Assembly (NCBI GenBank): GCA_963718915.1
Contig: CAVRAI010000003.1
Span: forward strand, 570,001-602,000
DNA from: an uncultured Chloroflexia bacterium
GTDB lineage: Bacteria; Chloroflexota; Ktedonobacteria; Ktedonobacterales; JADMIN01
Length of the DNA: 32,000 nucleotides
Direction of reading: 5' to 3'
Below the pieces are notes generated by a model. That model had not been told where the DNA came from, ran no database searches, and was given only the letters and a program-made list of their open reading frames with translations. Below, piece by piece: positions 5,662 through 27,452 of this stretch. Numbering within the stretch: the stretch's first letter is position 1; every line of letters begins with the position of its first letter. The position numbers and the translations under genes were made by a program.

Positions 5662-6660
5662 ATGGTAGTGGACGACGAGACGCGGCAGATCATGTTCAGC
5701 GAGCTACGCCAGCGATTTGGAGCGGGCGTGGTTGGTCACGAGATGCTCTCGCGTCATGGCACCTTTGGTGTTGGCGGTCCAGCGGATGTCTGGCTGGCCA
5801 TCGAGCGAGAAGACATGCTCGTCGAACTGGCGGCGCTGGCCAACGACCGCCAGTGGCCGCTTATGCTCGTCGGCAATGGCACGAATGTTCTCTATGCCGA
5901 CGCGGGCGCGCGTGGCATCGTCGCCCGCATGCACAGCGCCGCCTGGCGCCTCGACGAGGTGGATGGCGAGCATACACTGCTCATCGCCGATGGCGGCGTT
6001 GATCTGCCAAAACTGGTCAATGCGCTGGCGGTCCAGGGGCTTGCCGGGCTGGAATGGGGCGCGGGTGTGCCTGGCACCGTCGGCGGCGCGGTGGTGAGCA
6101 ACGCGGGCGCCAATGGGTCATGCGTCGCCGATACGCTGAAGACGGCGCGCGTGCTCTTCACCGGCGAAGGTGTTGTACGCGAACTGCCTGCCGAGGAGTT
6201 GCGCCTTGCCTACCGTCACAGCCGCTTCCGGGCGGGACGGCGGATTGCGTTTGGCGACGATGGGCAGCCGGTGGCCGCGCCACGGGCATTGATCGAGCCA
6301 GCCGAGATGATTACCGGGGCGACGTTTCTGCTGACCCGCGACGATCCCGTCGCCGTCCGCGCGCGCGTCCAGCATCATCTGCGCTATCGCAAAGAGACTC
6401 AGCCGACACAGAAGAGCGCTGGCTCCGTCTTCAAGAACCCATTGCCCGAGTTTTCTGGTAGACTGATCGAGGCGGCTGGCCTGAAAGGTTACATGATCGG
6501 CAAGGCGCAAATCTCGCCCCGACACGCCAACTTCATCGTCAACGCGGGCGGCGCGACGGCGGCGGATGTTGTCGCGCTGATCGCGCTGGCCCGGCGCACG
6601 GTACGCGAGCAGTTTGATATCGAGCTTGAACTGGAAGTGGAGCTGCGCGGCGACTGGTAG
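5662..6660 (+). CDS. murB: UDP-N-acetylenolpyruvoylglucosamine reductase
   Basis: LSRHGTFGVGGPADVWLAIE...LMLVGNGTNVLYADAGARGIVARM (FAD-binding PCMH domain), then LAYRHSRF, SAGSVFKNP, GKAQISPRHANFIVN and a C-terminal LELEVEL. Collinear with MurB. The start could be 5614 (GTG), 5662 or 5692. Confidence 0.9.
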   Translation: MVVDDETRQIMFSELRQRFGAGVVGHEMLSRHGTFGVGGPADVWLAIEREDMLVELAALANDRQWPLMLVGNGTNVLYADAGARGIVARMHSAAWRLDEVDGEHTLLIADGGVDLPKLVNALAVQGLAGLEWGAGVPGTVGGAVVSNAGANGSCVADTLKTARVLFTGEGVVRELPAEELRLAYRHSRFRAGRRIAFGDDGQPVAAPRALIEPAEMITGATFLLTRDDPVAVRARVQHHLRYRKETQPTQKSAGSVFKNPLPEFSGRLIEAAGLKGYMIGKAQISPRHANFIVNAGGATAADVVALIALARRTVREQFDIELELEVELRGDW

Positions 6661-6690
6661 CGTTAGCTTGCCACTGGCCGCATGTCGATT

Positions 6691-6727
6691 GGAGATGGTT
6701 CGGAGATGGTTCGGAGATGGTTCGGAG
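6691..6727 (+). repeat. 11-bp tandem repeat GGAGATGGTTC x3.4 in the murB / next-gene spacer
   Basis: Read directly: ggagatggttc (6691-6701), ggagatggttc (6702-6712), ggagatggttc (6713-6723), then ggag... merging into the GGAGGG Shine-Dalgarno of the 6735 gene. Confidence 0.9.
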
Positions 6728-6734
6728 GGAAGCT

Positions 6735-7445
6735 ATGGCGAGTGCGCGGGTAGAGGCGCCATCGGTGGAGATGTCATTGCAGGCATTGCGTCGCCCGCTT
6801 GCCGATGGCGGGATGGCTGCTCCAGCGCTAGATGACGCGCTGGATCTGGTGCGAAGGGTTGGCGATGAGCCAGCGTATGCCACGCGCGTGCGTCAGGTAC
6901 TCGCACAGCCAGCTGGACTGGCGCAAGTGATTTTGGCTGCGGCGCCTCGTGTCGCTTCGGCGTGGGCGATAGCTGGGCTGATGGTGCTGACGGCGCTGGC
7001 CGGCCCGCTGCTCGCCTATGCTATCTTTGAAACGTCGTCGCAGACGGCGACCGCCATCGGCGATCCGTTCCAGGTGTACGCCGCGCAGCTTCCGGGCTGG
7101 GCTGGGCTGGCGGCGGGCATCGTCGGGACGGCGCTGTTGATCGTCTTTCTGCTGACGGTGACACGCTATCAGCGTCCCACGTTGCTCGGCCTGTTTGGTG
7201 GGCTGGCGGGTGGGATCGTCGAGGTCATAGCGGCGGTGCTGCCGTGGGTGGGCATCGTCGGGGCGAAGACGACCTGCGTGGCAGGCTCCGGCTGTACCGT
7301 TCAGGCGGGCGTTCCCGAACAAATTGGCCTTGTTGCCGCTCTCTGCTTCGCCATCCCTTTCGTGCTGGCGGTGACGGGCGTCTCAGGCACGCTGGCGCTG
7401 TGGCTTCAGCGGCGGCGCCTGCTGGCCGCGATTCGTAGCGCATAG
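6735..7445 (+). CDS. hypothetical integral membrane protein (about 4 TM helices)
   Basis: ORF 6717..7445. The ATG at 6735 is preceded by GGAGGG at a 5-nt spacing. Hydrophobic helices include AWAIAGLMVLTALAGPLLAYAI, LAAGIVGTALLIVFLLTV, LLGLFGGLAGGIVEVIAAVL and LVAALCFAIPFVLAVTGV. No family recognised. Confidence 0.55.
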   Translation: MASARVEAPSVEMSLQALRRPLADGGMAAPALDDALDLVRRVGDEPAYATRVRQVLAQPAGLAQVILAAAPRVASAWAIAGLMVLTALAGPLLAYAIFETSSQTATAIGDPFQVYAAQLPGWAGLAAGIVGTALLIVFLLTVTRYQRPTLLGLFGGLAGGIVEVIAAVLPWVGIVGAKTTCVAGSGCTVQAGVPEQIGLVAALCFAIPFVLAVTGVSGTLALWLQRRRLLAAIRSA

Positions 7446-7601
7446 CTCTCGTCGCAACGCCTGGAACGTTGCGCGCGTACGTAATGCAGACAGCGGAATC
7501 AGTCGAAACCAGCGCAGTCATGTAGATGCTGGATGTTGGCTATCAACGCAGCGTGGCAGATGCAACCCCTGTCACGCCTTGCGCGAGGAGGAATACGCGC
7601 C

Positions 7602-8333
7602 ATGCAGATGCAACCGTCGCAATCACCGCAACCATCGGCAACGCCTCAGCAGGAGGCCATGCGCGTGCTCCGCGAGCGTTACGAGCGCGGGGAAATCGCG
7701 TTCGAGACGTTCCAGCGCGGGCTTGATGCCCTCTTGCTTGCGCGGGATGCGGACGAGTGTCAGGCCATCATGAACGGCCTGCCGCAGTTGCCCACCAGTA
7801 AGGTCGATCAACTCGATGCCCTTTCGTCGCGGCCATCATCTTCCCCCGCGCCGTTCCGCCAGAGCGGACAGCCCCGCAGGCTGCTCGCATTCTTCAGCCA
7901 GGTGAAGCGCATGAATCACGCCTGGCGGCTGGATCCCAATACAACTGGCGGCGCGGTCTTCGGTCAGATGGATCTGGACCTCAATCTCGCGGCGCTCCCT
8001 TCACATGTCACCATGACGCTCTCTGCCGTCTTTGGCCAGGTCACCATCTACGTCCCCGCGACAGCGCAGGTGCGGGTGCGGGCCAGCGCATTGATGGGCG
8101 AGGTGAACATCTTCGGCGAGAGTTCGGGTGGCATCTTCGTCAGCGACGAGTCAACGTCCGAAAGCTCGACGCCCGGTCATCCTGAGACGACGATTGACCT
8201 CGACGTGCGGGCAGTCTTTGGCGAGGTGAAGGTCATCCACGGCGAGAATCCGTCGCTCTTCAAGAAGCTTGGCGCCATCGTGCGGCGCATGATCGCGGAG
8301 CCGGAGCCGGGCAGACTCTCGAATCCATCGTGA
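7602..8333 (+). CDS. SHOCT-like N-terminal motif plus LiaF-C/DUF2154-like beta-rich C-terminal domain protein
   Basis: ATG at 7602 with GAGGAGG 10 nt upstream. LRERYERGEIAFETFQRGLDALL matches the SHOCT motif pattern. The C-terminus (GGAVFGQMDLDLNLAALPSHVTMTLSAVFGQVTIYVPATAQVRVRASALMGEVNIFGE...VRAVFGEVKVI) has the repetitive GxVxI pattern seen in the LiaF C-terminal domain. Confidence 0.5.
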   Translation: MQMQPSQSPQPSATPQQEAMRVLRERYERGEIAFETFQRGLDALLLARDADECQAIMNGLPQLPTSKVDQLDALSSRPSSSPAPFRQSGQPRRLLAFFSQVKRMNHAWRLDPNTTGGAVFGQMDLDLNLAALPSHVTMTLSAVFGQVTIYVPATAQVRVRASALMGEVNIFGESSGGIFVSDESTSESSTPGHPETTIDLDVRAVFGEVKVIHGENPSLFKKLGAIVRRMIAEPEPGRLSNPS

Positions 8334-8420
8334 GCGAATTGAGAGGGTGACAGGGTGAACTTCGCGGCGCAGTATCGTTCTACATGTTAGGGGACGTGTG
8401 AGACTGGCTGGCGGCTGAAG

Positions 8421-8543
8421 CCGCGCCTAAGGGCTACGCCGCAAAGGCCGCCTGCGCGGCCTCGAATTGTGGCGATTCTGCTCTCTGGAGCCTGCGCAGG
8501 CAGGCTTTGTGGATGAGCGGAAGCGAGTCCCTTAGCCGCGCGT
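8421..8543. repeat. ~120-bp imperfect palindromic (long hairpin / MITE- or REP-like) element upstream of murC
   Basis: Outer arms are gcgcctaaggg (8423-8433) and cccttagccgcgc (8529-8541). Inner arms are ccgcaaaggccgcctgcgcggc (8439-8460) and gcctgcgcaggcaggctttgtgg (8490-8512), near reverse complements with a few mismatches. The centre is at ~8461-8489. Confidence 0.7.
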
Positions 8544-8589
8544 TCACGCGCTTGGCATCTGGCAATCTAGAGTGGGGAATAATGGCGTG

Positions 8590-10044
8590 ATGAATCCAGG
8601 CGAGTTGTTGAAGCTTTTTCCAGATGGGCTGCGCGGCAAGCGCATTCACGTGGTCGGCGCGGGCGGCAGTGGCGTCTCGTCGGTGCTGTTGCTGGCGCGC
8701 GAGCAGGGCGCGGTGGTCACCGGCTGTGATATCGCCCAGACGACCATGACGCGCGTGCTGGAACAGCAAGGCATCACTATCCAGTCTGGACACGACGTCG
8801 CCCACATTCATGATGTTGATCTGGTGGTGACCAATCCCGCCGTTACCCATCTCCATCCCGACCACATCGAGCTACGGGCCGCCGAGGCGGCGGGCATCCC
8901 GGTGACACAGTGGCAGCCGCTGCTTGGCTATCTGATGCGCCAGACGCCAGGTATCGCGATTGCTGGCGTGCACGGCAAAGGCTCGACAGGGGCGCTGCTG
9001 GGCGCGCTGGCCACCGCCGCTGGCCTCGACCCAACCGTGGAACTGGGCGCGGTCGTGCCTGAGTGGAAGGGCAACGTGCGCATAGGGCACGGCAATCTCT
9101 TCATCAACGAGGCGGATGAGTGGAACTATAACTTTCTCAATTACCATCCGCGCATGACTGTCCTGACCGCCGTGGAGTACGACCACCCGGAGTTCTTTCC
9201 GTCATACGATGTCATCCGCGACGCCTTCGTGCAGTTCCTGCATGGGATGGATACCACTGCCCGCCCCGATGCCTCCTTCGCGCCGATGGTCGTCTATAAC
9301 GACGATATCCCCGGCTGCCGCGATGTAATCGCGCGGCTAAGCGATATGCCGATTGCCACGCGCCCATTTAGCCTGGAGCGGCCCGATGCCGAGGCGGGCG
9401 CGGCGGATATGCGCGTCGATACCGAGACGAGCTTTACGCTGCTGTTGCATGGCGAAGCCCTGGGGCGGGTCACGCTGGCGACTCCCGGCCCCCACAACAT
9501 CGCCAACGCAGTGGCCGCCGCTGCTGCTGCCGATGCGCTGGGTATCGCGCCGGAGGTGATCGTGCGGGCGCTGACGGCCTTCCCCGGCGTGCGCCGCCGC
9601 TTCGAGATCATCGAGGATGGCGACGTGACCTTCATCGACGACTACGCCCACCATCCCCATGCGGTTGCGCTGACGGTGGCCACGGCGCGCAAACGCTTCC
9701 CCGGTCGGCGGCTGATCGCGGTCTTCCAGCCGACGCTCTTCACCCGTCTGCATCGCTTCCTGGAACCGTTCGCCGCCGCTTATGATGAGGCGGACGAGGC
9801 GGTGGTGGTGGAGATTCAGCCCTCACGCGAGCGCGACACCGGCCTGATTCATGGCAATGATCTGGTGAAGGCGATTGCCGCGCGTCCAGCCTGGCAGGGC
9901 CGCGCCTCCTCCATCCACTACGGCGGCAACTTCGACGAGACGGCGGCGCTGCTGCGTGCGATGCGCCAGCCTGGCGATGTTTACGTCATCATGGGGTCCG
10001 GCCCGGTTAACCGCGTGATCGCCCCCGCCCGCCTGCACGGCTAG
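8590..10044 (+). CDS. murC: UDP-N-acetylmuramate--L-alanine ligase
   Basis: GKRIHVVGAGGSGVSSVLLLAREQGAVVTGCD (Rossmann N-domain), IAIAGVHGKGSTGALL (Mur ligase P-loop), LTAVEYDHPEFF and DDYAHHPHAV. Collinear with MurC. An alternative GTG start lies at 8572. Confidence 0.9.
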   Translation: MNPGELLKLFPDGLRGKRIHVVGAGGSGVSSVLLLAREQGAVVTGCDIAQTTMTRVLEQQGITIQSGHDVAHIHDVDLVVTNPAVTHLHPDHIELRAAEAAGIPVTQWQPLLGYLMRQTPGIAIAGVHGKGSTGALLGALATAAGLDPTVELGAVVPEWKGNVRIGHGNLFINEADEWNYNFLNYHPRMTVLTAVEYDHPEFFPSYDVIRDAFVQFLHGMDTTARPDASFAPMVVYNDDIPGCRDVIARLSDMPIATRPFSLERPDAEAGAADMRVDTETSFTLLLHGEALGRVTLATPGPHNIANAVAAAAAADALGIAPEVIVRALTAFPGVRRRFEIIEDGDVTFIDDYAHHPHAVALTVATARKRFPGRRLIAVFQPTLFTRLHRFLEPFAAAYDEADEAVVVEIQPSRERDTGLIHGNDLVKAIAARPAWQGRASSIHYGGNFDETAALLRAMRQPGDVYVIMGSGPVNRVIAPARLHG

Positions 10045-10253
10045 GCGCGCCACCCGTTAATGGGTGATGGGCGCGTCGGACGGTCCTTCGCTCACTCGTC
10101 CCCACGAAGCCAGTCCGCCCTCACTGCTAAAATCGCCATTCATCGGATCGCTTTCGGCGTACGCAAAAATACCACTGTGTCTGTCTGCAAATCTCAGGTA
10201 TACTGCCCCTGGACACAGGCGAACACTGTGACGCACAGAGGAGGGATATCGCG

Positions 10254-10961
10254 ATGAATGGACATGCGCCGGGCCAGCCGCCGTTTCCACAGGCGTGGTG
10301 GGCTTTCGATCTGGGACGCTATCGTGGCTGCGACGGCACGTATTGCCGCTACGAATACGAGAGCCTGCCGCCGATACCGGCGGTGAGTGAGTCGCTCGAC
10401 TGGCTGGAGCCGCTGGATGAGCGCACCGACGCAAAGATGGCGATTCACCGCAATCCACCAGAAGCGCGCGGCGAGGTGGCAAAAATCGCGGAGTCGGCGG
10501 AGCGGCTGGGACTGACGCTGCCCGAATCGTTCATCCGGCTGATGAGCTCGACTGAGCTGCAGGACCGCATTCCCTCGTGTACCGCCTGCTACTTCAATCT
10601 CTCAGATGACATCATGCCTTGCCCCGGCAGTGACGGCGGCTACATCGTCCGCTTCTACTGCGACCAGCAGGACGTCCTGCTCTGGTACCTCTATCTCACG
10701 CCGCAGGGCGCGCAATACGTGCTCGTCACGCCTATCGAACTGGAGGAGATGGCGGCGAATACGCTCACCGACGAGGCTCGGCAGAGCATCCAGCGGAACA
10801 CGTGGGTCTGCGCGCCATCGTTCGCCGCCTTCATCTATCGCTGGTGGCTGGAAAACTCGCTCTGGTTCAAAGTCTCCGAATCAGATGACGAGGATAAGCT
10901 GACCGCAGACGAGCGCGCCTACCTCGCGCACTACAGCGCTGGTGGTGGCGCCAGCCAGTAG
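10254..10961 (+). CDS. hypothetical protein, possible SMI1/KNR4 (SUKH)-like fold
   Basis: ATG at 10254 preceded by GAGGAGGGA. The segment AESAERLGLTLPESFIRLMSS...RFYCDQQDVLLWYLYLTPQGAQYVLV resembles the 'LG..LPedy..fl ... dqqg...wyl' pattern of SMI1/KNR4 proteins. Pattern recognition only. Confidence 0.4.
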   Translation: MNGHAPGQPPFPQAWWAFDLGRYRGCDGTYCRYEYESLPPIPAVSESLDWLEPLDERTDAKMAIHRNPPEARGEVAKIAESAERLGLTLPESFIRLMSSTELQDRIPSCTACYFNLSDDIMPCPGSDGGYIVRFYCDQQDVLLWYLYLTPQGAQYVLVTPIELEEMAANTLTDEARQSIQRNTWVCAPSFAAFIYRWWLENSLWFKVSESDDEDKLTADERAYLAHYSAGGGASQ

Positions 10962-11161
10962 TCGTGCGCCATAACTCCCTATGCGCCTGGGAATATCTAC
11001 CCTTCCTTCTTTGCATTTCCAGTGCCGTCTGGTAGGATAATGCAATGGGGCGAAGCATGCTGGCGGCTCGGGATATATTTGGTAGCGCCGCCTAGGTGTA
11101 CCACCGCGAATCAGGCTGGCCGAGCTTCTTCATCTCTCCATCAGGAGGCTCTAAAGGACTT

Positions 11162-12004
11162 ATGATAAGACTACGATCACGTCTTGTGCTGCTGCTGGGG
11201 TGCCTTGTCGTCCTCGGCGTCATCATTTTGAGCGGCTGCAGCGGTACGGTGTCTACCACGAACCTGTCGCAGATCAAGCCGGTCGCGACGGTTCCCTATC
11301 TGCCGCCGACGGTGGTACCCAATACGCCCGTTGCCACGGCCACAGCCACGGCGACGGCGAAACCGCATCCGGCGAAGACACCTGTTCCATCTGGCCCACC
11401 AGCGCCGATTCCGACCGCGGGGTCATTACCTCCAGGCCCGATGCCCGCTGGTACCGTGCCCAATATTGGCGGCCAGCTCATCCTGGTCAGCCTCTCGCAA
11501 CAATGGCTCTTCGCCTTTCAGGATCATCGGCTGGTCTTCCGCACGGCGGTGACAACGGGCATGCCGCAGTTACCGACGCCAACCGGTACTTTCCATATCC
11601 AGTGGCACGAGCGCAATGTGACGTTCTACTCGCCGTGGCCGCTGGGGTCGCCCTATTATTACTCGCCGGAGCACATCAACTACGCCATGTATTTCCTGTA
11701 CAACGGCTACTACATCCACGACGCGCCCTGGCGACACGTCTTCGGCCCCGGCACGAATTATCCCCATACTGATCCTGACGGCACCCACGAGACGGGCAGC
11801 CATGGCTGTGTGAATGTGCCAACTGGGCCGATGTCATGGCTCTATAACTGGGCGCATGATGGCGCGACGGTCGTCATCTATGGCCATGCCGCCACCGGAC
11901 CCGCCCCGACACCAACGCCGACGAAGACGCCCGCGCCCGCACCGACGGCAACCGATACGCCTGTGCCTCCGCCAGCGCCAACCGACACGCCAACAACGCC
12001 GTAG
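11162..12004 (+). CDS. L,D-transpeptidase (YkuD domain) lipoprotein with PT-rich linkers
   Basis: ATG at 11162 after AGGAGG. The signal peptide carries a lipobox (LGVIILSGC). The YkuD core reads LILVSLSQQWLFAFQDHRLVFRTAVTTGMPQLPTPTGTF...YYIHDAPWR...GSHGCVNVP, with the catalytic HGC motif. Pro/Thr/Ala low-complexity regions lie at both ends. Confidence 0.85.
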   Translation: MIRLRSRLVLLLGCLVVLGVIILSGCSGTVSTTNLSQIKPVATVPYLPPTVVPNTPVATATATATAKPHPAKTPVPSGPPAPIPTAGSLPPGPMPAGTVPNIGGQLILVSLSQQWLFAFQDHRLVFRTAVTTGMPQLPTPTGTFHIQWHERNVTFYSPWPLGSPYYYSPEHINYAMYFLYNGYYIHDAPWRHVFGPGTNYPHTDPDGTHETGSHGCVNVPTGPMSWLYNWAHDGATVVIYGHAATGPAPTPTPTKTPAPAPTATDTPVPPPAPTDTPTTP

Positions 12005-12012
12005 AATCCAGA

Positions 12013-12193
12013 GACCTCACCCCCAGCCCCTCTCCTAGGAGGAGAAGGGAGTGTGCGCGTCGCCAACTGGCGAAATGGTTGCCTATGCCCTCCCCTGGTA
12101 GGGGAGGGTGGCCGAAGGCCGGGTGAGGTTCTTCCCTGGCGGCGGACCTCACCCCCAACCCCTCTCCCACAGGAGAGGGGCGCCAGAGGGGAG
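12013..12193. repeat. cluster of three REP-like hairpin repeats (+,-,+) between convergent genes; probable bidirectional terminator/RNA-stability elements
   Basis: Copy 1 (12013-12053): gacctcacccccagcccctctcctaggaggagaagggagtg. Copy 2 (12088-12129, inverted) has a perfect 9-bp stem ccctcccct/aggggaggg and ends in ccgggtgaggt. Copy 3 (12145-12193): gacctcacccccaacccctctcccacaggagaggggcg, with a 9-bp stem cccctctcc/ggagagggg. ORFs overlapping these repeats (11874..12170 on the minus strand, 12053..12250 on the plus strand) are artefacts. Confidence 0.8.
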
Positions 12194-12220
12194 CCAGAAT
12201 CGCGCCGAGTGGGCTGTGGC

Positions 12221-13162
12221 TCAGTTGAGGCTGGCGCGCACCTCGCGTAGCTCCGCTATGCGCCGACGCAGCCGACCAACCTCCGGCGCGGCGGGGGCGC
12301 GTTCGGCGTAGGTGGCGATATCGGCGGCGGCAAGGAGTGGCTCGCCCAGCGCCAGCCGCAGCAGCCCGCGATCCCGTAGCTCTTCGGGCATATCAGGCCG
12401 CAGCAGCACCAGCCGCTCCACCACTTCGAGCGCGAGCCGACTCTCGCCACGGTGCAGATAGATTACTTTGAGGTTGTTCAGCATGCGGGTGAGGATGGCG
12501 CGAGCGCTCAGGGGAGCGCTCCAGCGCGGATCAAAATAAGGGAGCGCTCCAGTCGCGCCCATCAACTCAATGATGAAATGGCGGCATTCGTCGGCGTCGA
12601 GCAACTTGCCGCCATGAAAGGCATCCAGGTAGAGGTCGCCACCCTCCTCGCGTGGCAGCGGCCACTTGACCATGAAGTGTGACGGCAGCCCAACGCCGCG
12701 TAGCGGAATGCCAAGGCGGCGCGCGACCTCCAGGTAGATGACCGAGAGCGTGATCGGCAGGCCAACGCCACGGTCGAGCGTTTCATGCAAATAGGTGTTG
12801 CGCGGATCGTAATAGTCTTCAGTATTGCCGGATAGCCCCTCGTGATCCGCCAACGTCTCGCGCAGCGTCTCCAGCACGCGAGTCGCCATTGCACGTTCTC
12901 GAAGCGCACGGGAACGTCGCAGCCCCGCCGCAGTTGTGCCAAGCGCCTCACGCACTATCGTTGCCAGCGCATCCAGTCGCCGCTGATAGTGGGCGGCGTT
13001 CAGATCAGCATAGGCGATGTCAGCCATCATCAGCGCGCCCTGCGCCAGATCAAGCTGGGTATCAGGATGGGCGGCAAACGCGGCGAAGCGCAGCAGCGGT
13101 GTGAACGGTGTAGCATCCATGGGCAACTCATCTATCAGCGAAAATGATGGGATGGTTCGCAC
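12221..13162 (-). CDS. SirB1/YchA-like protein (transglutaminase-like N-domain + TPR-like C-domain, UPF0162)
   Basis: YYDPRNTYLHETLDRGVGLPITLSVIYLEVARRLGIPLRGVGLPSHFMVKW...LYLDAFHGG, and a C-terminal RLALEVVERLVLLRPDMPEELRDRGLLRLALGE. This parallels E. coli SirB1 (...PEDPYEIRDRGLIYAQL). The start could be the GTG at 13162 or the ATG at 13120. Confidence 0.7.
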   Translation of the reverse strand: MRTIPSFSLIDELPMDATPFTPLLRFAAFAAHPDTQLDLAQGALMMADIAYADLNAAHYQRRLDALATIVREALGTTAAGLRRSRALRERAMATRVLETLRETLADHEGLSGNTEDYYDPRNTYLHETLDRGVGLPITLSVIYLEVARRLGIPLRGVGLPSHFMVKWPLPREEGGDLYLDAFHGGKLLDADECRHFIIELMGATGALPYFDPRWSAPLSARAILTRMLNNLKVIYLHRGESRLALEVVERLVLLRPDMPEELRDRGLLRLALGEPLLAAADIATYAERAPAAPEVGRLRRRIAELREVRASLN

Positions 13163-13248: not shown

Positions 13249-14988
13249 TCATCGATGGGTGAGTTGTACGAGCGCGATGACGCAGAAGACGATGGCGAAA
13301 AGGCCGCCCAGCGCCAGCAGCGCGGCATAGATACCACGGGTGCGCGCCATGTAGCGCCGATAATAGGCGTCGGATGCCGTGGCAGGCTCGCGGAGACGCT
13401 GGCGCTCAGTGACGGTAAGCTCTGTCATCTCGGCCAGTCGCGTGGCAAGCGCCTTCTGCTCCAGCGCGAAATGGTCGTTGCGGGCGCGCAGCAGAAACGC
13501 GATGACAAACGCGATGTAGCCGCTATACAGGATGGCCGCCAGCAACGCCAGCAGCGGCGAGATGGCGGGCTGGATCAGGCCAGCGATGACCACTGCCGTC
13601 AGCAACCCCACCGTCCGGTAGACGTTATCCACCACATCGCCTGTGAGATCGCCGACCGCTTTACGCACCGTTTCCGCGTAGTCCGCCACGGCATTCTGCG
13701 CGGTCTGGCGCGCGGCGAAGTAGCGGTCGGTCTGGCCGCGCACGAAAAGCGTAAAGTTGGCTTTGGCCGCCTCCAGCGCATCCACCGCCGCCCGCGCCAC
13801 CTCGGCCAGCGATACCGCGTGACCTGGCGGCAGCTCGCGCGCCAGACACTCACGCGCGATGATGAGCGTGTCGACGGCGCCGCGCCGCGTGGCCCAGTCC
13901 GCCAGTCGCGCCAGCGTCTCTCCCGCAGCCGCCGATGGGAGCGCCTCATCGCCCGTAGTGGGGAGCGTACAGGTCGCGGGACGCACCCCGGCAAACCGCA
14001 GCGCCAGCCCATCCGTCAATCTGCCCTGCACGACGCTGGCGAGCGCGGTCGCCGCCAGCTCCGCCCGTAGGAGCGCCAGCTGCGCCGCTGTTGCCTCCAG
14101 ACCGGGAGCGCGGGCAACCAGCCGCAGCGTCTCCGCCGTCAGAATCTGTGGCGCGTCGGGCCAGCCACCCTCCTCGGCGAGCAAACGCCGTGACGCCTGC
14201 GCGCGGCTGACGAACTGGCGGAACGCGGCGGGTGAGACTTGCAGCCAATCGGGCACGTTGGGGCTCGACGCTCCCACGCATTCGAGCGCGGCGCCCGCCA
14301 GATAGCCTGGTGTGTCGCAGAGCAGCACGCAGGTTCGGCCATCGGCGCGAATCAGCCCCGACTGTTCCAAATAGGGGATCCCGGCGAGGCTGATGAGTTG
14401 ATTCCAGGCGGCGGCGGTATAGAAGACCGCGACCATCGCCGGAGCCGCGACGCCAGGTCGTTGCATCATGATGTCCCGCGCCAGCGTGAGCGCGTGTGTC
14501 TTGCCGAAGGAGAGCCGCGCCTCGACGCTGAGTGCGTCCCCCTGTGTCTCCGCCGCCGATTGCGCCGCCGCCTGAAATGTCCGTAACGCGCCAGCGGGAT
14601 CGCTCCCCGCACGCAGGGAGGCCGCCACGGCGGGCATATCGGGGTCCAGCCCATCCAGCCGCAGATCGAGCGCAAGGTCATCGGCCAGCGTGGCGAACCA
14701 TCGCCCAGCCTCGTCGCTATCACTGTGGACCAGGTGTTCGACAGTCAGCCGGGCAACCACCTCCAGCCGTTCGAGCGCCTCGCCCTCGGCCAGCCGCGCC
14801 TGGGAGATGTTGAACGCCACGCCAATATCGGCGATGACCTCGTAGAGATGCTGCAACTGAGCGAGATGCGAATCAGGATACGGCGCGGGACGCCCGACTG
14901 CGCCATCTGTCGCCACGTCGGTTGTGTCTGGCAGGGCTGGGCGGGTACGCTGGCTCGTGGTCTGGCTGGTGCGGTTCGGTCTGCTCAT
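13249..14988 (-). CDS. hypothetical 579-aa protein: ~430-aa Ala/Leu-rich soluble region of unknown fold plus 3 C-terminal TM helices; translationally coupled to the upstream NA37-like gene
   Basis: ORF 13249..15558 was trimmed to the ATG at 14988-14986. That ATG overlaps the upstream stop (minus strand cgATGAgc) and has GAGGGGG 8-9 nt upstream. The protein starts MSRPNRTSQTTSQR. TM helices: VGLLTAVVIAGLIQPAI, LLALLAAILYSGYIAFVIAFLL and IYAALLALGGLFAIVFCVIALV. I recognise no catalytic or family motif. Confidence 0.65.
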   Translation of the reverse strand: MSRPNRTSQTTSQRTRPALPDTTDVATDGAVGRPAPYPDSHLAQLQHLYEVIADIGVAFNISQARLAEGEALERLEVVARLTVEHLVHSDSDEAGRWFATLADDLALDLRLDGLDPDMPAVAASLRAGSDPAGALRTFQAAAQSAAETQGDALSVEARLSFGKTHALTLARDIMMQRPGVAAPAMVAVFYTAAAWNQLISLAGIPYLEQSGLIRADGRTCVLLCDTPGYLAGAALECVGASSPNVPDWLQVSPAAFRQFVSRAQASRRLLAEEGGWPDAPQILTAETLRLVARAPGLEATAAQLALLRAELAATALASVVQGRLTDGLALRFAGVRPATCTLPTTGDEALPSAAAGETLARLADWATRRGAVDTLIIARECLARELPPGHAVSLAEVARAAVDALEAAKANFTLFVRGQTDRYFAARQTAQNAVADYAETVRKAVGDLTGDVVDNVYRTVGLLTAVVIAGLIQPAISPLLALLAAILYSGYIAFVIAFLLRARNDHFALEQKALATRLAEMTELTVTERQRLREPATASDAYYRRYMARTRGIYAALLALGGLFAIVFCVIALVQLTHR

Positions 14989-16169
14989 CGGCCAGCCCCC
15001 TCTTTGAGCGTCAGTGTCTCGATGGTCAGGCGGATTTTGCCGCCGACGCGCTGGTCCTCCACCCGTGCCATGGCGGCGAAGCGCTCTGCCGGGACAATCA
15101 GCCGGGCGCCGCCGTCCAATTCCAGCGTCACCGTCTGCACGATGGGATCGGCGGTGGGGCGATCCACCGTGAAGTGGGTCTGGTGTGGCTCGAACGCGGC
15201 GTCGAAGATACTCTGTGTGAGTGTGGAAAGCAGATCGGCGGCCAGCGCGCCATTGCCCGGCAACGCGGCCAGCGCGAACGCGGGCAGATCGAGCGTCTCG
15301 TCCGCGAGGGCCGCTCGTCGCGCCTCGTAGACGTGGAGTAGCGTGTGCGGCGAGAGGGAAGCGCCGCGATCCGCCAGCCAGTCGTCGGTCGCGCGGAGAA
15401 AGAGCCGGGTGCGCCGCCGGGCCGACGGCAGAATCTGGGTGGTGAGGAAGCCGCGATAGAAGTAGGCGGCGACGCCCTCGGAGCGGATGTTGGCCTGGGT
15501 GTCGAGCAGAACCAGCGCGAATCCGGCGCCGTCCGCTGAGGGAGTAATCAGCGCGCATTTCTGTTTCTGGCGCACGGTCTCGGGCATCAGGTTATCGGCC
15601 AGCGCGATGCGCACCAGCCGCCGCCCGCGCTCCGTCGAGAAATTGCGCACCAGCCGGGCGTCTGGGTCGAGCTTGAAGAGCGCGATGCACGACATCGGCA
15701 AGCCCGGCGCGGTATAGATGGCGACGACGAAATCGCCCGGGTTGATCTGATTCGGGCGCTGCCGCATCTGCGCGAAGAGACGACGCGCCATCTCGTGCGA
15801 GACCGCGACGAACGCGGATGGCTCGCCAAGTAGTCTGGCGCAGAGGTCAGGCATGGTCGGCGTAGCAGCCTGTTCGGCGAGGAAGCGCGCCTGCCAGTCG
15901 GCGTTTTCGAGCGCCTGGGCAATGTAGTTGGCAAAGAGCGCATGGATGGTCGCATCCAGCGCCAACTCCGCCTCAACCAGCAGCAGGGCGCCTGTGCGGT
16001 TATCCAGATGATGCAGAATCAGCCGCTCGATGGTGATCGCGGTAGCGCGCGTCGGCAGCGCGACGACCGGTGGGGCGGCTGGCTGCGCCACCTCGGCGAT
16101 ATCGGGCGCCCGGAACGCCTGCCCGCGCTCGGCAATGTGCGCCGCGCCAGTTCTGCTGAGTCTGCCCAT
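14985..16169 (-). CDS. NA37 family (YejK/NdpA-like) nucleoid-associated DNA-binding protein homologue, with a ~45-aa N-terminal extension
   Basis: ORF 14985..16475 was trimmed to the ATG at 16169, with GAGGAGGTG 6-8 nt upstream. ITIERLILHHLDNRTG..LLLVE, GDFVVAIYTAPG..MSCIALFKLDP, KQKCALITPSADGAGFALVLLDTQ....VAAYFYRGFLTTQIL, RRRTRLFLRATDDWL and the C-terminal IRLTIETLTLK follow the order and character of E. coli YejK motifs (IALHQL.., GGIVLFCHY..YLLVAVL, YLTFLKG..VADFFMDFLG, TLTIKG) as recalled from memory. Confidence 0.65.
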   Translation of the reverse strand: MGRLSRTGAAHIAERGQAFRAPDIAEVAQPAAPPVVALPTRATAITIERLILHHLDNRTGALLLVEAELALDATIHALFANYIAQALENADWQARFLAEQAATPTMPDLCARLLGEPSAFVAVSHEMARRLFAQMRQRPNQINPGDFVVAIYTAPGLPMSCIALFKLDPDARLVRNFSTERGRRLVRIALADNLMPETVRQKQKCALITPSADGAGFALVLLDTQANIRSEGVAAYFYRGFLTTQILPSARRRTRLFLRATDDWLADRGASLSPHTLLHVYEARRAALADETLDLPAFALAALPGNGALAADLLSTLTQSIFDAAFEPHQTHFTVDRPTADPIVQTVTLELDGGARLIVPAERFAAMARVEDQRVGGKIRLTIETLTLKEGAGR

Positions 16170-16402
16170 CGTCCGCACCTCCTCGGAGACGCCGCCTGTC
16201 TCTCTCAATCCTCTCCATTGTACACCTATCAATTCTCTGGGCGGTTGCCTGATATGGTACTCTAGGGTACCCTTCGCCGCCTGCCGCATCACCAATGCGT
16301 ACTCCAGGTAAGAGCATGAGCGGTGGGATTCTTTTGTGGCTCTCGTTACCTGGTTTTGAGCGTCTCGTTCTCTCCTTGTGAGCGGAGGAAACTCTGCATT
16401 CG

Positions 16403-16422
16403 AGAGATACCCAGAGATACCC
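16403..16422 (+). repeat. direct 10-bp repeat AGAGATACCC x2 (plus a degenerate third copy AGAGGGATAC at 16434-16443) in a low-GC divergent intergenic region
   Basis: Read directly: cgAGAGATACCCAGAGATACCCatggatgtttgAGAGGGATACgcg. Located 28-47 nt upstream of the GTG at 16450. Confidence 0.8.
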
Positions 16423-16449
16423 ATGGATGTTTGAGAGGGATACGCGCAG

Positions 16450-16851
16450 GTGGCTTTTCTCGTGACCGAATACACACTCGTTTTCCGCCGGATCGGTGGG
16501 CGACGCCGAGACTTCTCGCGGCCCTATAACGGCTGGACGCTTGCCCGGCCCGGGCTGGCGCAGCTGATGCTGGACGCCGCGACGCCCGACACCGACACCG
16601 ACACCGTCAACGGTCGGCAAAGCGGCGAGATCGCCCATGTGGTGGTCGTGCCGCTCTGCTCTACCCTCGCGCTAGAGCCACTTGCCTACGAGCATTTTCT
16701 GGTGGCGAGCGGGGTGCTGCCGCATTCGCTGCGCCTGCTGGCGCATGTCCGCCTGACCGACACGCACGCGGTCGAAACGGTACGTCGGCGAATTCAGTCG
16801 CTGGTGATGGCGGCTGAGGTACAGGCGATCATCGAGGGGCTATCGGCCTGA
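16450..16851 (+). CDS. small hypothetical protein (133 aa from GTG 16450; alternative ATG at 16567)
   Basis: Hand-counted third-position GC is ~80% over the whole frame, versus a ~50% GC non-coding stretch immediately upstream, so this frame is probably translated. An in-frame stop lies at 16432. The 3' end overlaps the convergent helicase gene by 23 nt. Contains a DTDTDT hexanucleotide repeat. No family recognised with confidence. Confidence 0.45.
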   Translation: MAFLVTEYTLVFRRIGGRRRDFSRPYNGWTLARPGLAQLMLDAATPDTDTDTVNGRQSGEIAHVVVVPLCSTLALEPLAYEHFLVASGVLPHSLRLLAHVRLTDTHAVETVRRRIQSLVMAAEVQAIIEGLSA

Positions 16852-19759
16852 CCGTCTCCTGCTGGGCGCTGCTGCTCCGCGCCGGAATGATTCCGCCATG
16901 GCCATCGTAGAGCGATGCGCAGTACGCCACCAGCCGTCGTAACAGGGGGACTTCTTCGAGCGCGGCGCGATTGCCCAGGATGATAAGCTTGTGCCGCGCC
17001 CGTGTCAGCGCCACATTCAGTCGGTTCGGGTCCGCCAGGAAGTCTGGCCCGCGCCCGCCCCATGTTGCCGCGCCCCCACCGCCAAAGCTGTAGAAGATGA
17101 CCGACCGCTCGCCTCCCTGGAAGCGATCTACCGTATCCACCAGCACATCGGTCTCGCCACCTGCCACCAGCCGCGCGCGAATAGCGCCCACCTGCGCCCG
17201 ATACGGCGCGATCACGCCAATGTCGTGCGCCGCGACGCCCAACCGGCGCAGCTCGCGCACCAGATTGCGCACCAGGATCGCCTGCGCCTGATTCTCCTTA
17301 TGCCCGCGCTCGTCCGGTCCCAACGGCACGTCGATGAAGACGACTGGATGCGCCGGATCGAGGACTCGCCCGAAAGTCCCCACTGCGGCCTCGCTCAGCG
17401 CTAACCGCGCGGTACGCGCTGATCCCTCCGCAACCAGGGTGTCGCCGTAGAATTCACCGCTGGGGAAGGCGCAGATGACGGGGTGCATCCGATACTGGCG
17501 CCGCAGGGGGACGCTGGCCTCCGCACCACAACGCTCTAGCAGCGTGGCAAAGAGCGAGCGTTTCAAGCCACGAGCAGCCGCCGTCTCGCTTCGCACCAGT
17601 GGCGGAAGCTGGCGATCATCCCCGACCAGCACAAAGCGCCGCGCGAATCGGAGCGCGCCGAGCGTCGTGGGCAGCGTTAGCTGGGTCGCTTCGTCCAGGA
17701 TGGCCAGATCGAAGAGCAGTGGCTCGCCAATATCATCATAGCTCTCGGATGACCATGTGGCCGTCGTCGCGGCCACCAGCGGCGCGGTACGCAGCGTCTC
17801 GCGGATGCGCCCCGGCGTCAGTTCGGCGCCTTCTCCGGCCAGCGCCCGTGCCCGCGTCACCAGCCGATGCCCTTGTATCTCTGGCGCGACGCTTAGCTCG
17901 TGGCCCAGCCGCACAAAATCATCCCAGCCATCAGCCAGCAACCGTCGCAGGACGGTATCCACCGCCTGATTGGTAAACGCGCCGATCAGTACTCGCTCGC
18001 CGCGTTGCATCGCTCGCCGGGCAATCTCGGCGACAACACTCGTCTTGCCGGTACCCGGCGGCCCCTGAATCAGCAGATAGTCGCGGGCGGCCAGCGCGCG
18101 GGCAACTGCCTGCCGCTGCTCGGTATTGAGGCTGGCGGGCAATGTCTCCTGTATCGCTGCCTCGGCGGACTCGTCGAAGGTGGGCGCGATGGCGCCGCGG
18201 ACCAGCTCGCGCAGGTGGGGCGCGCCACGTAGCCAGCGCCAGAGATTGCGCACGGTGCGATCATGCACGATATCGCTCTCGTAGCGGTCAAGCAGAGTGG
18301 GGTTGGCGATGCGCTCCGGCGTCCAGACGACGACACGTTGCGCCTCGATGCGCAGAATCGTCCCGCTGACCACCGCGCCGCGCACGGGATCGCCCTCGCT
18401 CACCAGCACGGCGTCGCCCTCGCGGAGATCGGAGCCTTGCGCGCCTTCGAGGGTATATTCCCACTCGCCCTTCGCGGTCTGGCGCGGTTCGCCCACCAGC
18501 CTGAGGTCGCCCAGCGCCACACCACGCCGCATCCGCTCAGCGGGTGTCGCTCGCCAGAGCGCGCTGCCATCGACTTCAGCGGCGCGCGCCTCCTGCCGCA
18601 GCAGATCGTACATCTCGGCGAACATCGTGGCGTCTTCCTGGTCAACCGGCTCCAGCACGTCGGGCAGGTCAGGTGGCTGCCAGCCAAGCAACGCCGAGGC
18701 GCGCAGGCAATCCTGCCGCACCATGCAGCGCGCGCACTTCAGCGCGGATGGCGGCGGGGGTACCGCGCCGGTCGCGTGGACGAGCGCCAGCGCGTTGCGT
18801 AGCTCCATCACTCGTTGCAGATCGCGATGGACGAAGGGGATCCTGTAGGTGTCTGCGCGACCGGGCGTTCCACTATAGAGCAGCGTCGCGCCGGGGCCAT
18901 CCTGCCGTCCCGGAAAGCGGGCGGCCAACAGCGTCTGGTAGCCATGCACCTGCCAGCGATGCTCGCGTTTGGGCAGCGACGCGCGCACGTTGCCGGTCTT
19001 CAGTTCAAGCAGTGACCCGCCGTGGGGATCCTGCAACAAGACATCGAGCCGCCCCTTCAGGCCAACCTCCGGCGCCAGGAGAAACGTCTCGGCGCGGATG
19101 TCGGGAGCGGTGCGCCAGAGATTCTGGCGGCTCTGGGCGTACCATGCGGCCAGCGCGCGTATATGGGGCGCGGCCTCAGCGGCCATCTCCCCCTCGCCGA
19201 TTTGTCGCAGCGCCAGCTCAACCTGCGCCGCGTCCAGGGCACGCTGAAGATAGACCTCGATAGGTTCGTTGCCGCCCTTGAGCAGCTCTTTAAACGCGGT
19301 ATGCACCAGCGTCCCACGCAGCGAGGCCGCGCTTGGCGGTGAGGGCGCCATACGGCGTAGCGGATACTGGCGCACGCAGTACTCGGCGTTGTTGATATCG
19401 GTAATGTTGAGCAGCAGGTCGGGTTCCAGCACGATCACGCCCGCTGGCAGCAGCCGCAACGTCTCGGGAGTAGCTGTGCGGGCGAGATGATGGACGCACA
19501 CACGCAACCCGCGCCAGCGATCTGGCGGATAGGCCGATAATTCGCGCCAGAGGGCGCGTCCCTGCTCCTCGCAACGCACATGTATGGTCTCGCCGCGTTC
19601 ATCGCGCAGCGTCAGTTCCAACTGGCGCAACCTGGGGTCAAATGCCGCGTCGCACAGTTCGCCGGAAACGCTGGCCACGTCACAGGGGGTCGCGCGCTCC
19701 ATCTCCCATGGGCAGAGAAAGCAGCTCTGCGCGCTATTCGTAGACTTGTCTGCTGCCAT
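16829..19759 (-). CDS. Dna2-like bifunctional protein: N-terminal Cas4/RecB-type PD-(D/E)xK nuclease with a 4-Cys Fe-S cluster, fused to an Upf1/Dna2-type SF1B helicase
   Basis: Nuclease motifs: AEYCVRQY (Cys1), GRLDVLL...LLELKTG (D...ExK), QVHGYQTLL (QhxxY) and CARCMVRQDC (CxxCx5C). Helicase motifs: LIQGPPGTGKTS (I), AILDEATQL (II), VLVGDDRQLPP (III), RQYRMHPVI (IV), VIAPYRAQV, VDTVDRFQGGERSVIF (V) and NVALTRARHKLIILG (VI). A ~115-aa Cys-containing N-terminal extension (CFLCPWEMERATPCD) has unknown function. Confidence 0.85.
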   Translation of the reverse strand: MAADKSTNSAQSCFLCPWEMERATPCDVASVSGELCDAAFDPRLRQLELTLRDERGETIHVRCEEQGRALWRELSAYPPDRWRGLRVCVHHLARTATPETLRLLPAGVIVLEPDLLLNITDINNAEYCVRQYPLRRMAPSPPSAASLRGTLVHTAFKELLKGGNEPIEVYLQRALDAAQVELALRQIGEGEMAAEAAPHIRALAAWYAQSRQNLWRTAPDIRAETFLLAPEVGLKGRLDVLLQDPHGGSLLELKTGNVRASLPKREHRWQVHGYQTLLAARFPGRQDGPGATLLYSGTPGRADTYRIPFVHRDLQRVMELRNALALVHATGAVPPPPSALKCARCMVRQDCLRASALLGWQPPDLPDVLEPVDQEDATMFAEMYDLLRQEARAAEVDGSALWRATPAERMRRGVALGDLRLVGEPRQTAKGEWEYTLEGAQGSDLREGDAVLVSEGDPVRGAVVSGTILRIEAQRVVVWTPERIANPTLLDRYESDIVHDRTVRNLWRWLRGAPHLRELVRGAIAPTFDESAEAAIQETLPASLNTEQRQAVARALAARDYLLIQGPPGTGKTSVVAEIARRAMQRGERVLIGAFTNQAVDTVLRRLLADGWDDFVRLGHELSVAPEIQGHRLVTRARALAGEGAELTPGRIRETLRTAPLVAATTATWSSESYDDIGEPLLFDLAILDEATQLTLPTTLGALRFARRFVLVGDDRQLPPLVRSETAAARGLKRSLFATLLERCGAEASVPLRRQYRMHPVICAFPSGEFYGDTLVAEGSARTARLALSEAAVGTFGRVLDPAHPVVFIDVPLGPDERGHKENQAQAILVRNLVRELRRLGVAAHDIGVIAPYRAQVGAIRARLVAGGETDVLVDTVDRFQGGERSVIFYSFGGGGAATWGGRGPDFLADPNRLNVALTRARHKLIILGNRAALEEVPLLRRLVAYCASLYDGHGGIIPARSSSAQQETVRPIAPR

Positions 19760-19904
19760 CGCCAGCGCTCACTTTCCCGCCAGCGGCTATCGCATGGCGC
19801 ATCGCAGTGTACGGCGAAGCAGGCGGCGCGTCAAGCGGGCTGGAGGCGATGGACCGATATCCGCCGCTACAGTTCAGCTGGAACCTGTAACCCAAGATCG
19901 ACGT

Positions 19905-19933
19905 TTGTGAAAAGAGGTATTTGCGGTTATACT
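19905..19933 (+). promoter_or_regulatory. candidate sigma70-type promoter TTGTGA-N17-TATACT for the HlyD-family gene (~205-nt leader)
   Basis: TTGTGA at 19905-19910 and TATACT at 19928-19933 with a 17-nt spacer, in the divergent intergenic region 19760-20144. Confidence 0.45.
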
Positions 19934-20144
19934 ATCCGCGTCTAGCTGAACGCGAAAGTCTATCGGGCACAGTGCCGGGCGATTACGGTTCATCGGAACG
20001 ATATGCTCTGGCCATCTGGTGACGCTGTGGCGCGCAACTCGTCCATATACGATACTCAGAGTTGATAGCGTATCGCTGATGCAGCGCGTGAAAGATGCTC
20101 CTGCCACGGAGCGCTCGCGTGCTTCGAAGGGATAGAGAAGCACC

Positions 20145-26560: not shown

Positions 26561-27244
26561 CTAAGTTGCTGAGGCAATGCCCAGCAGTCGGTCCACCAGC
26601 GCGACATTCGCCTGCTCCAGCGCGTCGACCAGCGCGTCGGCGGCGGCGAGGCCGGGCGCGTCGGGCTGGCCCGCGCGGCGCACCGCCAGGCAGCGCATCC
26701 CGCCCGCGTGGGCGGCGGCGACCCCAGCGGGCGCGTCTTCGATGACCAGGCAATGCGCGGGAGTGACTCCCAGATGCTCGGCTCCGGCGAGGAAGATGTC
26801 GGGCGCGGGCTTGCCGTGGGCCACTTGCTCGCCTGAGACGACCGCATCGAGGTAGGGCGCGATACCGAGCAACTGGACGATTGCCTCCAGGTTGGCGGGT
26901 GGCGCCGATGAGCCGAGCGCCTGCCGGTAGCCCGCCGCATGCAGCGCCGCCAGCAGTTCTTTCGCGCCGGGAAGCGCCACAGCCTCCTCCGCCAGCAACG
27001 CGCGGTAGATGGCCTCCTTGCGGTCGCCCAGCGCGGCGATGCGTTCCGGTGGACCGGATACGCCGAACATACGTGGGAAGATGTCGCTGTTGCGCATGCC
27101 GAAGGTGGCCCAGAAGGCGGCGTCGCTATAGGGCAGATGCTCTTCGCGCGCCAGCTGCTCCCAGGCGCGGCGATGCTGCTCGCCGCTATCGATCAGGACG
27201 CCGTCAACATCCCACAATACCGCATAGTCGCCACGATTGACCAT
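26561..27244 (-). CDS. HAD-superfamily hydrolase, subfamily IA (beta-phosphoglucomutase/phosphatase-like)
   Basis: From Met23 of ORF 26561..27310: MVNRGDYAVLWDVDGVLIDS (DxDGxL motif I), GSSAP (motif II region), KPAPDIF, and CLVIEDAPAGVAAAHAGGM (motifs III/IV). Confidence 0.85.
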   Translation of the reverse strand: MVNRGDYAVLWDVDGVLIDSGEQHRRAWEQLAREEHLPYSDAAFWATFGMRNSDIFPRMFGVSGPPERIAALGDRKEAIYRALLAEEAVALPGAKELLAALHAAGYRQALGSSAPPANLEAIVQLLGIAPYLDAVVSGEQVAHGKPAPDIFLAGAEHLGVTPAHCLVIEDAPAGVAAAHAGGMRCLAVRRAGQPDAPGLAAADALVDALEQANVALVDRLLGIASAT

Positions 27245-27452
27245 CCTGGCCCGCCTCCTCAGTCTGTCTCTGGCCTGCTGCTTCTCAGCGCGCTCAGCCG
27301 TTCTAACCATGCACTGGGATTGTATCGCGCCAGTCGCGCATCAATCTCGGCCCATTTCCATGAGGACCTGTCAAAAAGCAACCGCTTCATTCGATCAGGA
27401 TAGTGTGGGAGAAGGCAGGCGCTTCTCGTCACCACGGCAGAAAGTAGTCTCT

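Follow-up and report, generated by a model that had tools for sequence, protein, structure and literature searches.

Do four genes that lie side by side on the chromosome of an uncultured Chloroflexota bacterium make up a single antiphage system, or do they belong to separate units that adjoin one another? We addressed this question for positions 13249-19759 of a 32,000-nucleotide stretch of DNA (hereafter the window; contig CAVRAI010000003.1 of assembly GCA_963718915.1) from a Ktedonobacterales (Chloroflexota) genome, where genes for a protein with a Pfam NA37 domain, a protein with transmembrane (TM) helices (the TM protein), a small protein and a Dna2-like nuclease-helicase occur together. 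A preliminary description of this DNA had likened the block to the sensor, helicase-nuclease and membrane-effector combinations of antiphage systems. We found that it is best explained, with a probability of about 0.5, as two functional entities that have long been neighbors: a three-gene module encoding the NA37, TM and small proteins, and the Dna2-like enzyme. At even odds, the NA37-TM core of this module would be a remote relative and architectural twin of DS-17 and type II PANGU, in which a nucleoid-associated protein (NAP) is paired with a membrane-protein partner.

Gene models and transcription units

The four genes first described together at 13249-19759 all exist there; they are genuine, intact and under purifying selection, and the closest database proteins to the window genes come from Ktedonobacterales (Chloroflexota) metagenome-assembled genomes. 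The mechanically called open reading frames (ORFs) 13249-15558 (769 aa) and 14985-16475 (496 aa) are over-extended in this sequence of high guanine-plus-cytosine (GC) content (roughly 64%). We place the start of the NA37 gene (14985-16169, minus strand, 394 aa) at the ATG at 16169 and not at 16475, because a GAGGAGG ribosome-binding site lies upstream of it and a database protein (P0001) is 100% identical over 394 aa, and start-codon inspection places that of the TM gene (13249-14988, minus strand, 579 aa) at the ATG at 14988 and not at 15558. The latter ATG, served by a AAAGAGGGGG ribosome-binding site, overlaps the NA37 stop codon as ATGA (14985-14988), with the partner gene directly downstream on the same strand and well inside the gap of <40 bp used to define operons for PANGU. 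This start/stop overlap with its ribosome-binding site indicates that the two genes form one translationally coupled operon, with the NA37 gene first.

A divergent intergenic (promoter) region of 280 bp (16170-16449) separates the NA37 operon from the small ORF (16450-16851, plus strand, 133 aa), which is divergent from the NA37 gene and convergent with the Dna2-like gene (16829-19759, minus strand, 976 aa), the 3' ends of the latter two overlapping by 23 nt. The Dna2-like gene forms a transcription unit of its own; a divergent intergenic region of 385 bp (19760-20144) lies between it and the gene for an HlyD-type adaptor and contains one sigma-70-like site per direction, at 19834-19806 (minus strand) and 19905-19933 (plus strand), both of which are consensus matches only. 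Three transcription units thus make up the block, namely the NA37-TM operon, the small ORF and the gene for the Dna2-like enzyme, and the initial suspicion that a promoter region sets the helicase apart from the NA37 pair is borne out.

Alignment of 16170-16449 with the related loci L019, L005 and L006 revealed long invariant stretches although synonymous divergence (dS) to L006 is about 1, and a conserved TACAAT hexamer resembling a -10 element lies upstream of the NA37 start. The same region carries a 16-bp palindrome, GGTACTCTAGGGTACC (16256-16271), that occurs only once in the 32 kb, is kept in L005, L019 and L020, and has one mismatch in L006 despite the dS of about 1. We regard it as a candidate operator. 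It was not found in the deeper lineages and is clade-specific, and no operator common to all lineages was found in the NA37/small-ORF intergenic region.

Conservation of the trio and adjacency of the Dna2-like gene

Gene contexts were read around NA37 or TM homologues ranging from 81% down to 44% identity, which represent eight deep lineages. Sampling by homology in this way favors presence, and no named cultured Ktedonobacteria are among the matches; a contig scan with the TM alignment, which relies on exact peptide seeds, yielded 7 loci and has no use as a census. The trio, in which the NA37 and TM genes follow one another and the small ORF precedes them on the opposite strand, was present in 8/8 lineages, at every locus long enough to show it. 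The Dna2-like gene is adjacent in five of the eight (the window clade, L006, L001, L002/L010 and L012) and absent from the neighborhood in the other three (L007, L011 and L013), where the genes ahead of the small ORF are unrelated.

Neighbor-joining trees of the NA37 and TM proteins are congruent, and lineages with and without an adjacent helicase are interspersed on them, which points to adjacency as the probable ancestral state, with at least two losses (in L013 and in L007+L011). Residual synteny suffices to explain it, because prs and/or the HlyD-type gene is kept as a neighbor on the helicase side in several lineages and because L001 tolerates an insertion of three ORFs (133, 72 and 163 aa, no family matches; L001 5793-6926) between the Dna2-like gene and the small ORF. 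We conclude that the Dna2-like enzyme is an ancestral but dispensable neighbor of the trio.

Two of these loci have further features. In L012, a long-read contig, the Dna2-like, small-ORF and TM genes (5354-12262 and 14140-16192) are split by frameshifts, which are likely an assembly error but could be decay, and the region 2-4 kb downstream has genes for a DDE_5 transposase and a phage-type integrase. In L002 (1-3840) the block adjoins rpmH-rnpA-yidD-yidC-jag, a cluster usually located near the replication origin, and two endonuclease VII genes lie on its other side.

The NA37-TM pair and its possible kinship with DS-17 and type II PANGU

The 394-aa protein matches Pfam NA37 with E 4.5e-20 and 72.7 bits (cut-off 24.6). 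It also matches phrog_1974, a PHROG with no assigned function, over its full length (E 1e-25), which implies that NA37-like proteins are carried by phages or prophages as well. No NCBIfam family matched it at E<=0.1, and hence there was no match to the YejK equivalog; it does not qualify as a YejK orthologue, and by gene order its gene is co-transcribed with a TM partner in all relatives examined. The domain match identifies it as an NA37/YejK-like NAP that presumably binds DNA. The characterized NA37 proteins YejK and StaR are NAPs that modulate topoisomerases (PMC10053502).

Hydropathy analysis of the TM protein revealed three hydrophobic C-terminal helices, comprising a TM hairpin at ~458-502 and a third TM helix at ~552-574. 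The cytoplasmic N-domain is acidic (isoelectric point [pI] ~5.0, net charge -13) and the C-terminal region is basic. An AlphaFold2 (AF2) model with a predicted local distance difference test score (pLDDT) of 85.7 has a disordered segment (1-37), an alpha/beta domain (~40-390) and then three very long helices; Foldseek comparison of this model with the PDB gave no match with E<0.06, and the protein had no usable match in Pfam, NCBIfam, PADLOC or PHROGs. A profile search of 1.84 billion representatives showed that the TM family comprises 463 clusters at 50% identity, and N-domains were acidic in 41/42 members (median pI 5.1). These properties make the TM protein a candidate membrane effector or anchor.

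A comparable arrangement is known from phage defense, in recently validated abortive-infection systems built on a NAP. In PANGU, degradation of the genome by phage nucleases causes a NAP to leave the nucleoid and then bind an acidic 'DNA-mimicking' domain of the effector; in type II PANGU (Pag2A and Pag2B), the partner of the NAP joins an acidic domain at its N-terminus to a TM domain at its C-terminus (bioRxiv 10.64898/2026.04.06.716658). DS-17 of E. coli, validated as anti-phage in the DefensePredictor study, pairs the NAP WP_000355468.1 with the 404-aa hypothetical protein WP_000150292.1, or DS-17B (PMC13092281). Taking the DS-17B sequence from the supplement of that study, we found that its N-domain has a pI of 5.2 and that its TM hairpin and third TM helix are laid out as in the window TM protein. 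DS-17 is probably the same kind of system as type II PANGU, and the architectural equivalence of the NA37-TM pair with both is clear.

We compared the TM family with a profile of DS-17B homologues collected from plasmids. In hhalign the two profiles scored 41.0 (E 1.7e-4, probability 48.9%) across 230 colinear columns, which take in the last part of the N-domain and the TM hairpin, compared to 26.6 and 21.4 for two reversed alignments and at most 23.5 for block-shuffled ones. Because this profile score exceeds the controls while single-sequence comparisons are not significant, remote homology between the TM family and DS-17B is likely but not proven, and we treat it as borderline.

Beyond the Ktedonobacterales-type lineages, the NA37 gene lies immediately upstream of the TM gene, overlapping it or 3 nt away, in 5/5 distant TM-family members with usable contigs, such that the order NA37-then-TM is kept down to 20% identity across the eight Ktedonobacterales-type lineages and all five distant loci. 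No homologue of the small ORF or the Dna2-like gene was found at any of these five. In L100 (1-7205) the pair directly follows the genes of an Hma system (HmaB, as a methylase fragment, and HmaC, with 404 bits in PADLOC), and on the JGI (Joint Genome Institute) contig of P0399 it lies directly downstream of genes for an Mrr_cat protein and an RNase_H_2-like protein. The neighbors are PIN and PhdYeFM in L014, HicAB in L015 and an ATP-synthase operon in L016. A 61-aa ORF overlaps the NA37 start in L100. The PANGU authors class an operon as defense-related when it is linked to known defense genes within 10 kb (bioRxiv 10.64898/2026.04.06.716658); we observed such linkage for the distant members L100 (HmaB/C) and the P0399 contig (Mrr_cat), and not at the window locus. 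The ancient unit is the NA37-TM pair, which outside the Ktedonobacterales-type clade often occurs in accessory or defense-type contexts.

Inheritance of the block and the case for a housekeeping role

The block is flanked on one side by murB, a Mur ligase gene (murC) and genes for a LiaF-like protein, YkuD and a SirB1-like protein, and on the other by genes for the HlyD-type adaptor, prs, TetR, MFS, HAD and extracytoplasmic function (ECF) sigma factors. There is no Rfam hit in the window and no integrase or transposase domain among the neighboring ORFs scanned, and the GC content of the block (0.63-0.69) shows no sharp shift from that of the window (about 0.63). These domain, tRNA, Rfam and GC scans confirm that, as first described, the locus has housekeeping flanks and lacks the marks of an island. 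An origin as a genomic island was rejected on these grounds (no GC shift, tRNA or integrase) and on the equality of dS with the flanks.

Compared to L019, the ratio of nonsynonymous to synonymous divergence (dN/dS) is 0.10-0.23, which together with a dS equal to that of the flanks indicates that all the genes are functional and vertically co-inherited. NA37 and TM nevertheless evolve faster than the SirB1-like flank (86-88% versus 95% identity; dN/dS 0.18-0.23 versus 0.09). A flank-anchored metagenome scan with the SirB1-like protein as query returned only four informative close relatives, a small sample in which two carry the same sequence; the other 74 loci held homologues of ~40% identity from other taxa. 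The module looks fixed and vertically inherited in the window lineage, with no sign of a mobile defense island. The preliminary description had held that a block invariant across the clade would speak against a defense system, and the result goes part of the way in that direction.

Several observations weigh against a kinship with DS-17 and PANGU and against a role in defense. The hhalign probability for the TM family and DS-17B is only 49%, and BLASTP and hhalign comparisons of the single window proteins with DS-17A and DS-17B were not significant. The AF2 model of the TM protein has a mixed alpha/beta, mildly acidic N-domain that is not obviously the elongated 'DNA-mimicking' domain of Pag2B. 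PADLOC has no model matching the NA37 protein, the TM protein or the small ORF. The 32-kb window contains no defense genes, mobile-element genes or tRNAs and its genes neighboring the block are housekeeping genes. Relative to L019, dS in the block (0.28-0.39) equals dS in the flanks (0.32-0.34), and the block is present in all four informative relatives anchored on the flank, none of which has an empty site; patchy occurrence is the rule for defense systems. Searches of plasmids, phages and viral contigs found no copy of the TM protein, and a phage search with the NA37 protein was likewise without a match.

These observations are what would be expected if the genes served ordinary chromosome organization, with the NA37 protein as a housekeeping NAP, the membrane partner tethering it, and with it the nucleoid, to the membrane, the small protein acting as a regulator, the Dna2-like enzyme working in repair or replication, and no part in immunity. 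We consider this alternative possible but doubtful. It accounts for a block that is fixed, vertically inherited and under purifying selection, with the trio in 8/8 lineages and housekeeping genes on both sides, and for the one lineage in which the block stands beside rpmH-rnpA-yidC-jag. It is also in keeping with the modulation of topoisomerases by the NAPs YejK and StaR (PMC10053502) and with the finding of the PANGU authors that operons contain 47% of YejK-like genes and that only ~8% of non-redundant NAP operons are near defense genes (bioRxiv 10.64898/2026.04.06.716658). However, distant members of the TM family occur in defense or toxin-antitoxin contexts, there is borderline homology to the validated anti-phage effector DS-17B, and sequence change has been somewhat faster in NA37 and TM than in the SirB1-like flank. 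The apparent fixation must also be read with a sampling that favors presence and has no cultured Ktedonobacteria among its named matches. A fixed, vertically inherited module may have phage defense as its purpose, or may act as a general genome-integrity or cell-fate checkpoint; we put an antiviral role at roughly an even chance and hold a broader genome-integrity or nucleoid-membrane function to be somewhat unlikely.

Further along the window, two ECF-type sigma-factor genes (27237-29395 and 29626-31682) are each followed by an ORF without a Pfam match (458 and 534 aa), and these ORFs are possible anti-sigma partners.

The Dna2-like enzyme and the case for a four-gene system

The 976-aa protein contains the Pfam domains PDDEXK_1, Dna2, AAA_11 and AAA_12, and its best solved relative is mouse DNA2 (5EAN, E 1e-63), residues 265-1034 of which align colinearly with its residues 223-943. 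The N-terminal iron-staple PD-(D/E)XK nuclease has the motifs D239, E252-x-K254 and Q270xxxY274, and the cysteines that coordinate the Fe-S cluster (C...CxxCxxxxxC) are C128, C342, C345 and C351; these nuclease and Fe-S residues are conserved in four orthologues. The C-terminal SF1B (Upf1-like) helicase has motifs I-VI intact and conserved in orthologues (GPPGTGKT, DEATQ, GDDRQLPP, QYRMHP, VDRFQGGE and NVALTRAR). By these motifs the protein is a bacterial Dna2/Bad-type iron-staple nuclease-helicase. Bad of Geobacillus stearothermophilus is a single-stranded DNA (ssDNA)-dependent ATPase, a 5'-3' ssDNA motor and an ssDNA endonuclease (PMC7430649), and the intact motifs predict the same activities here (ssDNA-dependent ATPase, 5'-3' translocation and ssDNA endonuclease).

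The only PADLOC matches in the block are generic helicase or nuclease hits of this protein. MkoA matches residues 654-949 only (profile 765-1099 of 1112) and DpdJ matches through profile positions 51-469 of 2112, and the best NCBIfam scores are below cut-off (PLuB system helicase-like, 309 versus 999 bits; IGHMBP2 family, 285 versus 349). Identification as Mokosh from the MkoA match was rejected, since that match covers the helicase core only, and no partner-gene domains of Mokosh, Dpd or PLuB were found among the neighboring ORFs scanned.

Could the four genes nonetheless be one integrated antiphage system, with sensor, helicase-nuclease and membrane effector? We judge this quite improbable. 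Combinations of a helicase-nuclease with an effector are common in defense, the adjacency of the Dna2-like gene in 5/8 deep lineages persists despite changed outer flanks and looks ancestral on the tree, and a convergent overlap of the small ORF with the helicase gene is seen both in the window and in a JGI relative of 81% identity. Yet the helicase has ceased to be adjacent on two or more occasions (L013; L007+L011) and is lacking at each of the five distant loci, L001 tolerates three ORFs between helicase and trio, and the helicase gene has its own promoter region and runs convergent to the small ORF. With prs and/or HlyD-type neighbors kept on the helicase side, the adjacency may be residual synteny, and the matches to PADLOC and NCBIfam defense models are partial or far below cut-off. 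The proposal of one system of four genes thus fails on the absence of the helicase nearby in 3/8 deep lineages and 5/5 distant NA37-TM loci. What stands of the antiphage-type combination first described is a NA37-TM operon with DS-17/PANGU architecture to which the small ORF belongs, and of which the helicase is not part. The helicase and the NA37 pair are indeed found independently of each other, an outcome that had been named in advance as counting against the proposal and that applies in part.

The small protein

The small ORF is a real gene, as indicated by 133 homologues with strongly conserved motifs (EYTLVF[RK]R, VVPxCSTLALD, YExFL and IQSLVMAAEVQxIV) and a dN/dS of 0.11-0.16 compared to two closer relatives. 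All of the homologues come from Ktedonobacterales-type sequences, and their divergence tracks that of NA37 and TM. The protein has no usable match in Pfam, NCBIfam, PADLOC or PHROGs, and its AF2 model (pLDDT 75) has no Foldseek match in the PDB or BFVD (E<0.06). We assign it, from its conservation and position, to a new family that is the third member of the conserved trio. It is most likely a lineage-specific third component, a putative regulator of the operon or of the interaction between NA37 and TM. That it is instead an independent gene or transcription factor merely sharing the intergenic region, as its opposite strand, its absence from distant NA37-TM loci and its lack of a detectable domain might suggest, is highly doubtful given that it keeps the same head-to-head position in 8/8 lineages, including three without the helicase and with different genes beyond, and diverges in step with NA37 and TM. 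The N-terminal part of PEP synthase/PPDK faintly resembles the small protein (NCBIfam E 0.024), and the homologue P0336 carries a precomputed PF01326 hit.

A possible mechanism and its implications

If the block comprises a three-gene module and a Dna2-like neighbor, as we favor, the module may work as follows. By analogy with PANGU, the NA37 protein would bind and coat the chromosome. Degradation or gross perturbation of the nucleoid, for example by phage nucleases, would release it, and the released protein would bind the acidic cytoplasmic N-domain of its membrane partner, whose long helical TM region could then compromise the membrane or otherwise arrest the cell. The Dna2/Bad-like 5'-3' helicase-nuclease would meanwhile process single-stranded DNA ends or flaps in a repair or replication role. 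A more elaborate version, which we think unlikely, is that a PANGU/DS-17-like sensor of nucleoid integrity was domesticated in the Ktedonobacterales into a fixed three-gene cell-fate checkpoint with vertical inheritance, acquired the small protein as a new regulator and works with the Dna2-like enzyme. Processing of broken or foreign DNA by that enzyme would then set the nucleoid state that NA37 reads out, and the membrane partner would execute growth arrest or death of a filament compartment.

Systems of a NAP and an effector have been described only in 2025-2026, and only from accessory genomes of Proteobacteria and Bacillota. The locus extends the architecture of NA37 plus membrane partner to the Chloroflexota, and it reveals a large, previously unannotated partner family of 463 clusters with no Pfam, NCBIfam or PADLOC model. 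It also offers a case of a chromosomally fixed module with a third conserved gene added and a Dna2-like enzyme as its long-standing neighbor. Mobile copies in defense islands elsewhere, set against the core-like copy here, raise the question of whether such modules are purely antiviral or are genome-integrity checkpoints borrowed by phage defense. Profile alignments from this locus could serve as a starting point for models that detect the TM and small-protein families.

Comparison with known systems

The Dna2-like protein has in common with Bad and DNA2 an iron-staple PD-(D/E)XK nuclease followed by an SF1B helicase, with all catalytic and cluster-binding residues present. It differs in its N-terminal ~110 residues, which are unrelated, and in its lineage-specific, long-term neighborhood with the NA37 module. 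With Mokosh MkoA, Dpd DpdJ and the NCBIfam PLuB model it shares the Upf1-like SF1B helicase core; PLuB also has a nuclease-plus-helicase arrangement like its own, whereas the MkoA and DpdJ matches concern the helicase part only.

Compared to YejK of E. coli and StaR of S. pneumoniae, the window NA37 protein has the same Pfam NA37 domain, a similar size and presumed non-sequence-specific DNA binding. In contrast to them, it is obligatorily paired with a membrane protein and has no NCBIfam YejK match; no membrane-protein partner of YejK or StaR is described in PMC10053502 or bioRxiv 10.64898/2026.04.06.716658.

The differences from DS-17 lie in the proteins and in their setting. The partner has 579 aa here versus 404 aa in DS-17B, the N-terminal zinc ribbon of DS-17A is lacking in the window NA37 protein, and the extra conserved divergent small gene sets the locus apart from both DS-17 and PANGU. 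The window locus lies on the chromosome, is inherited vertically and has a housekeeping setting in the Chloroflexota, whereas DS-17-type pairs are found in prophage moron slots or on plasmids of Proteobacteria. On the Klebsiella plasmid pBio30 (L099 1823-4224), such a pair lies between the genes for antiterminator Q and holin, a lambdoid moron slot, and on a Methylobacter plasmid (L098 1680-5998) one has IS256 and the gene for a Gabija GajB helicase (777 bits) as neighbors. Besides the borderline profile similarity of the partner proteins, the window pair resembles DS-17 and PANGU in that a gene with a YejK/NA37 domain is immediately followed by one whose product combines an acidic cytoplasmic N-domain with a TM hairpin and one more TM helix towards the C-terminus, in that the two genes are coupled in translation or nearly so, and in that relatives of the pair adjoin defense genes.

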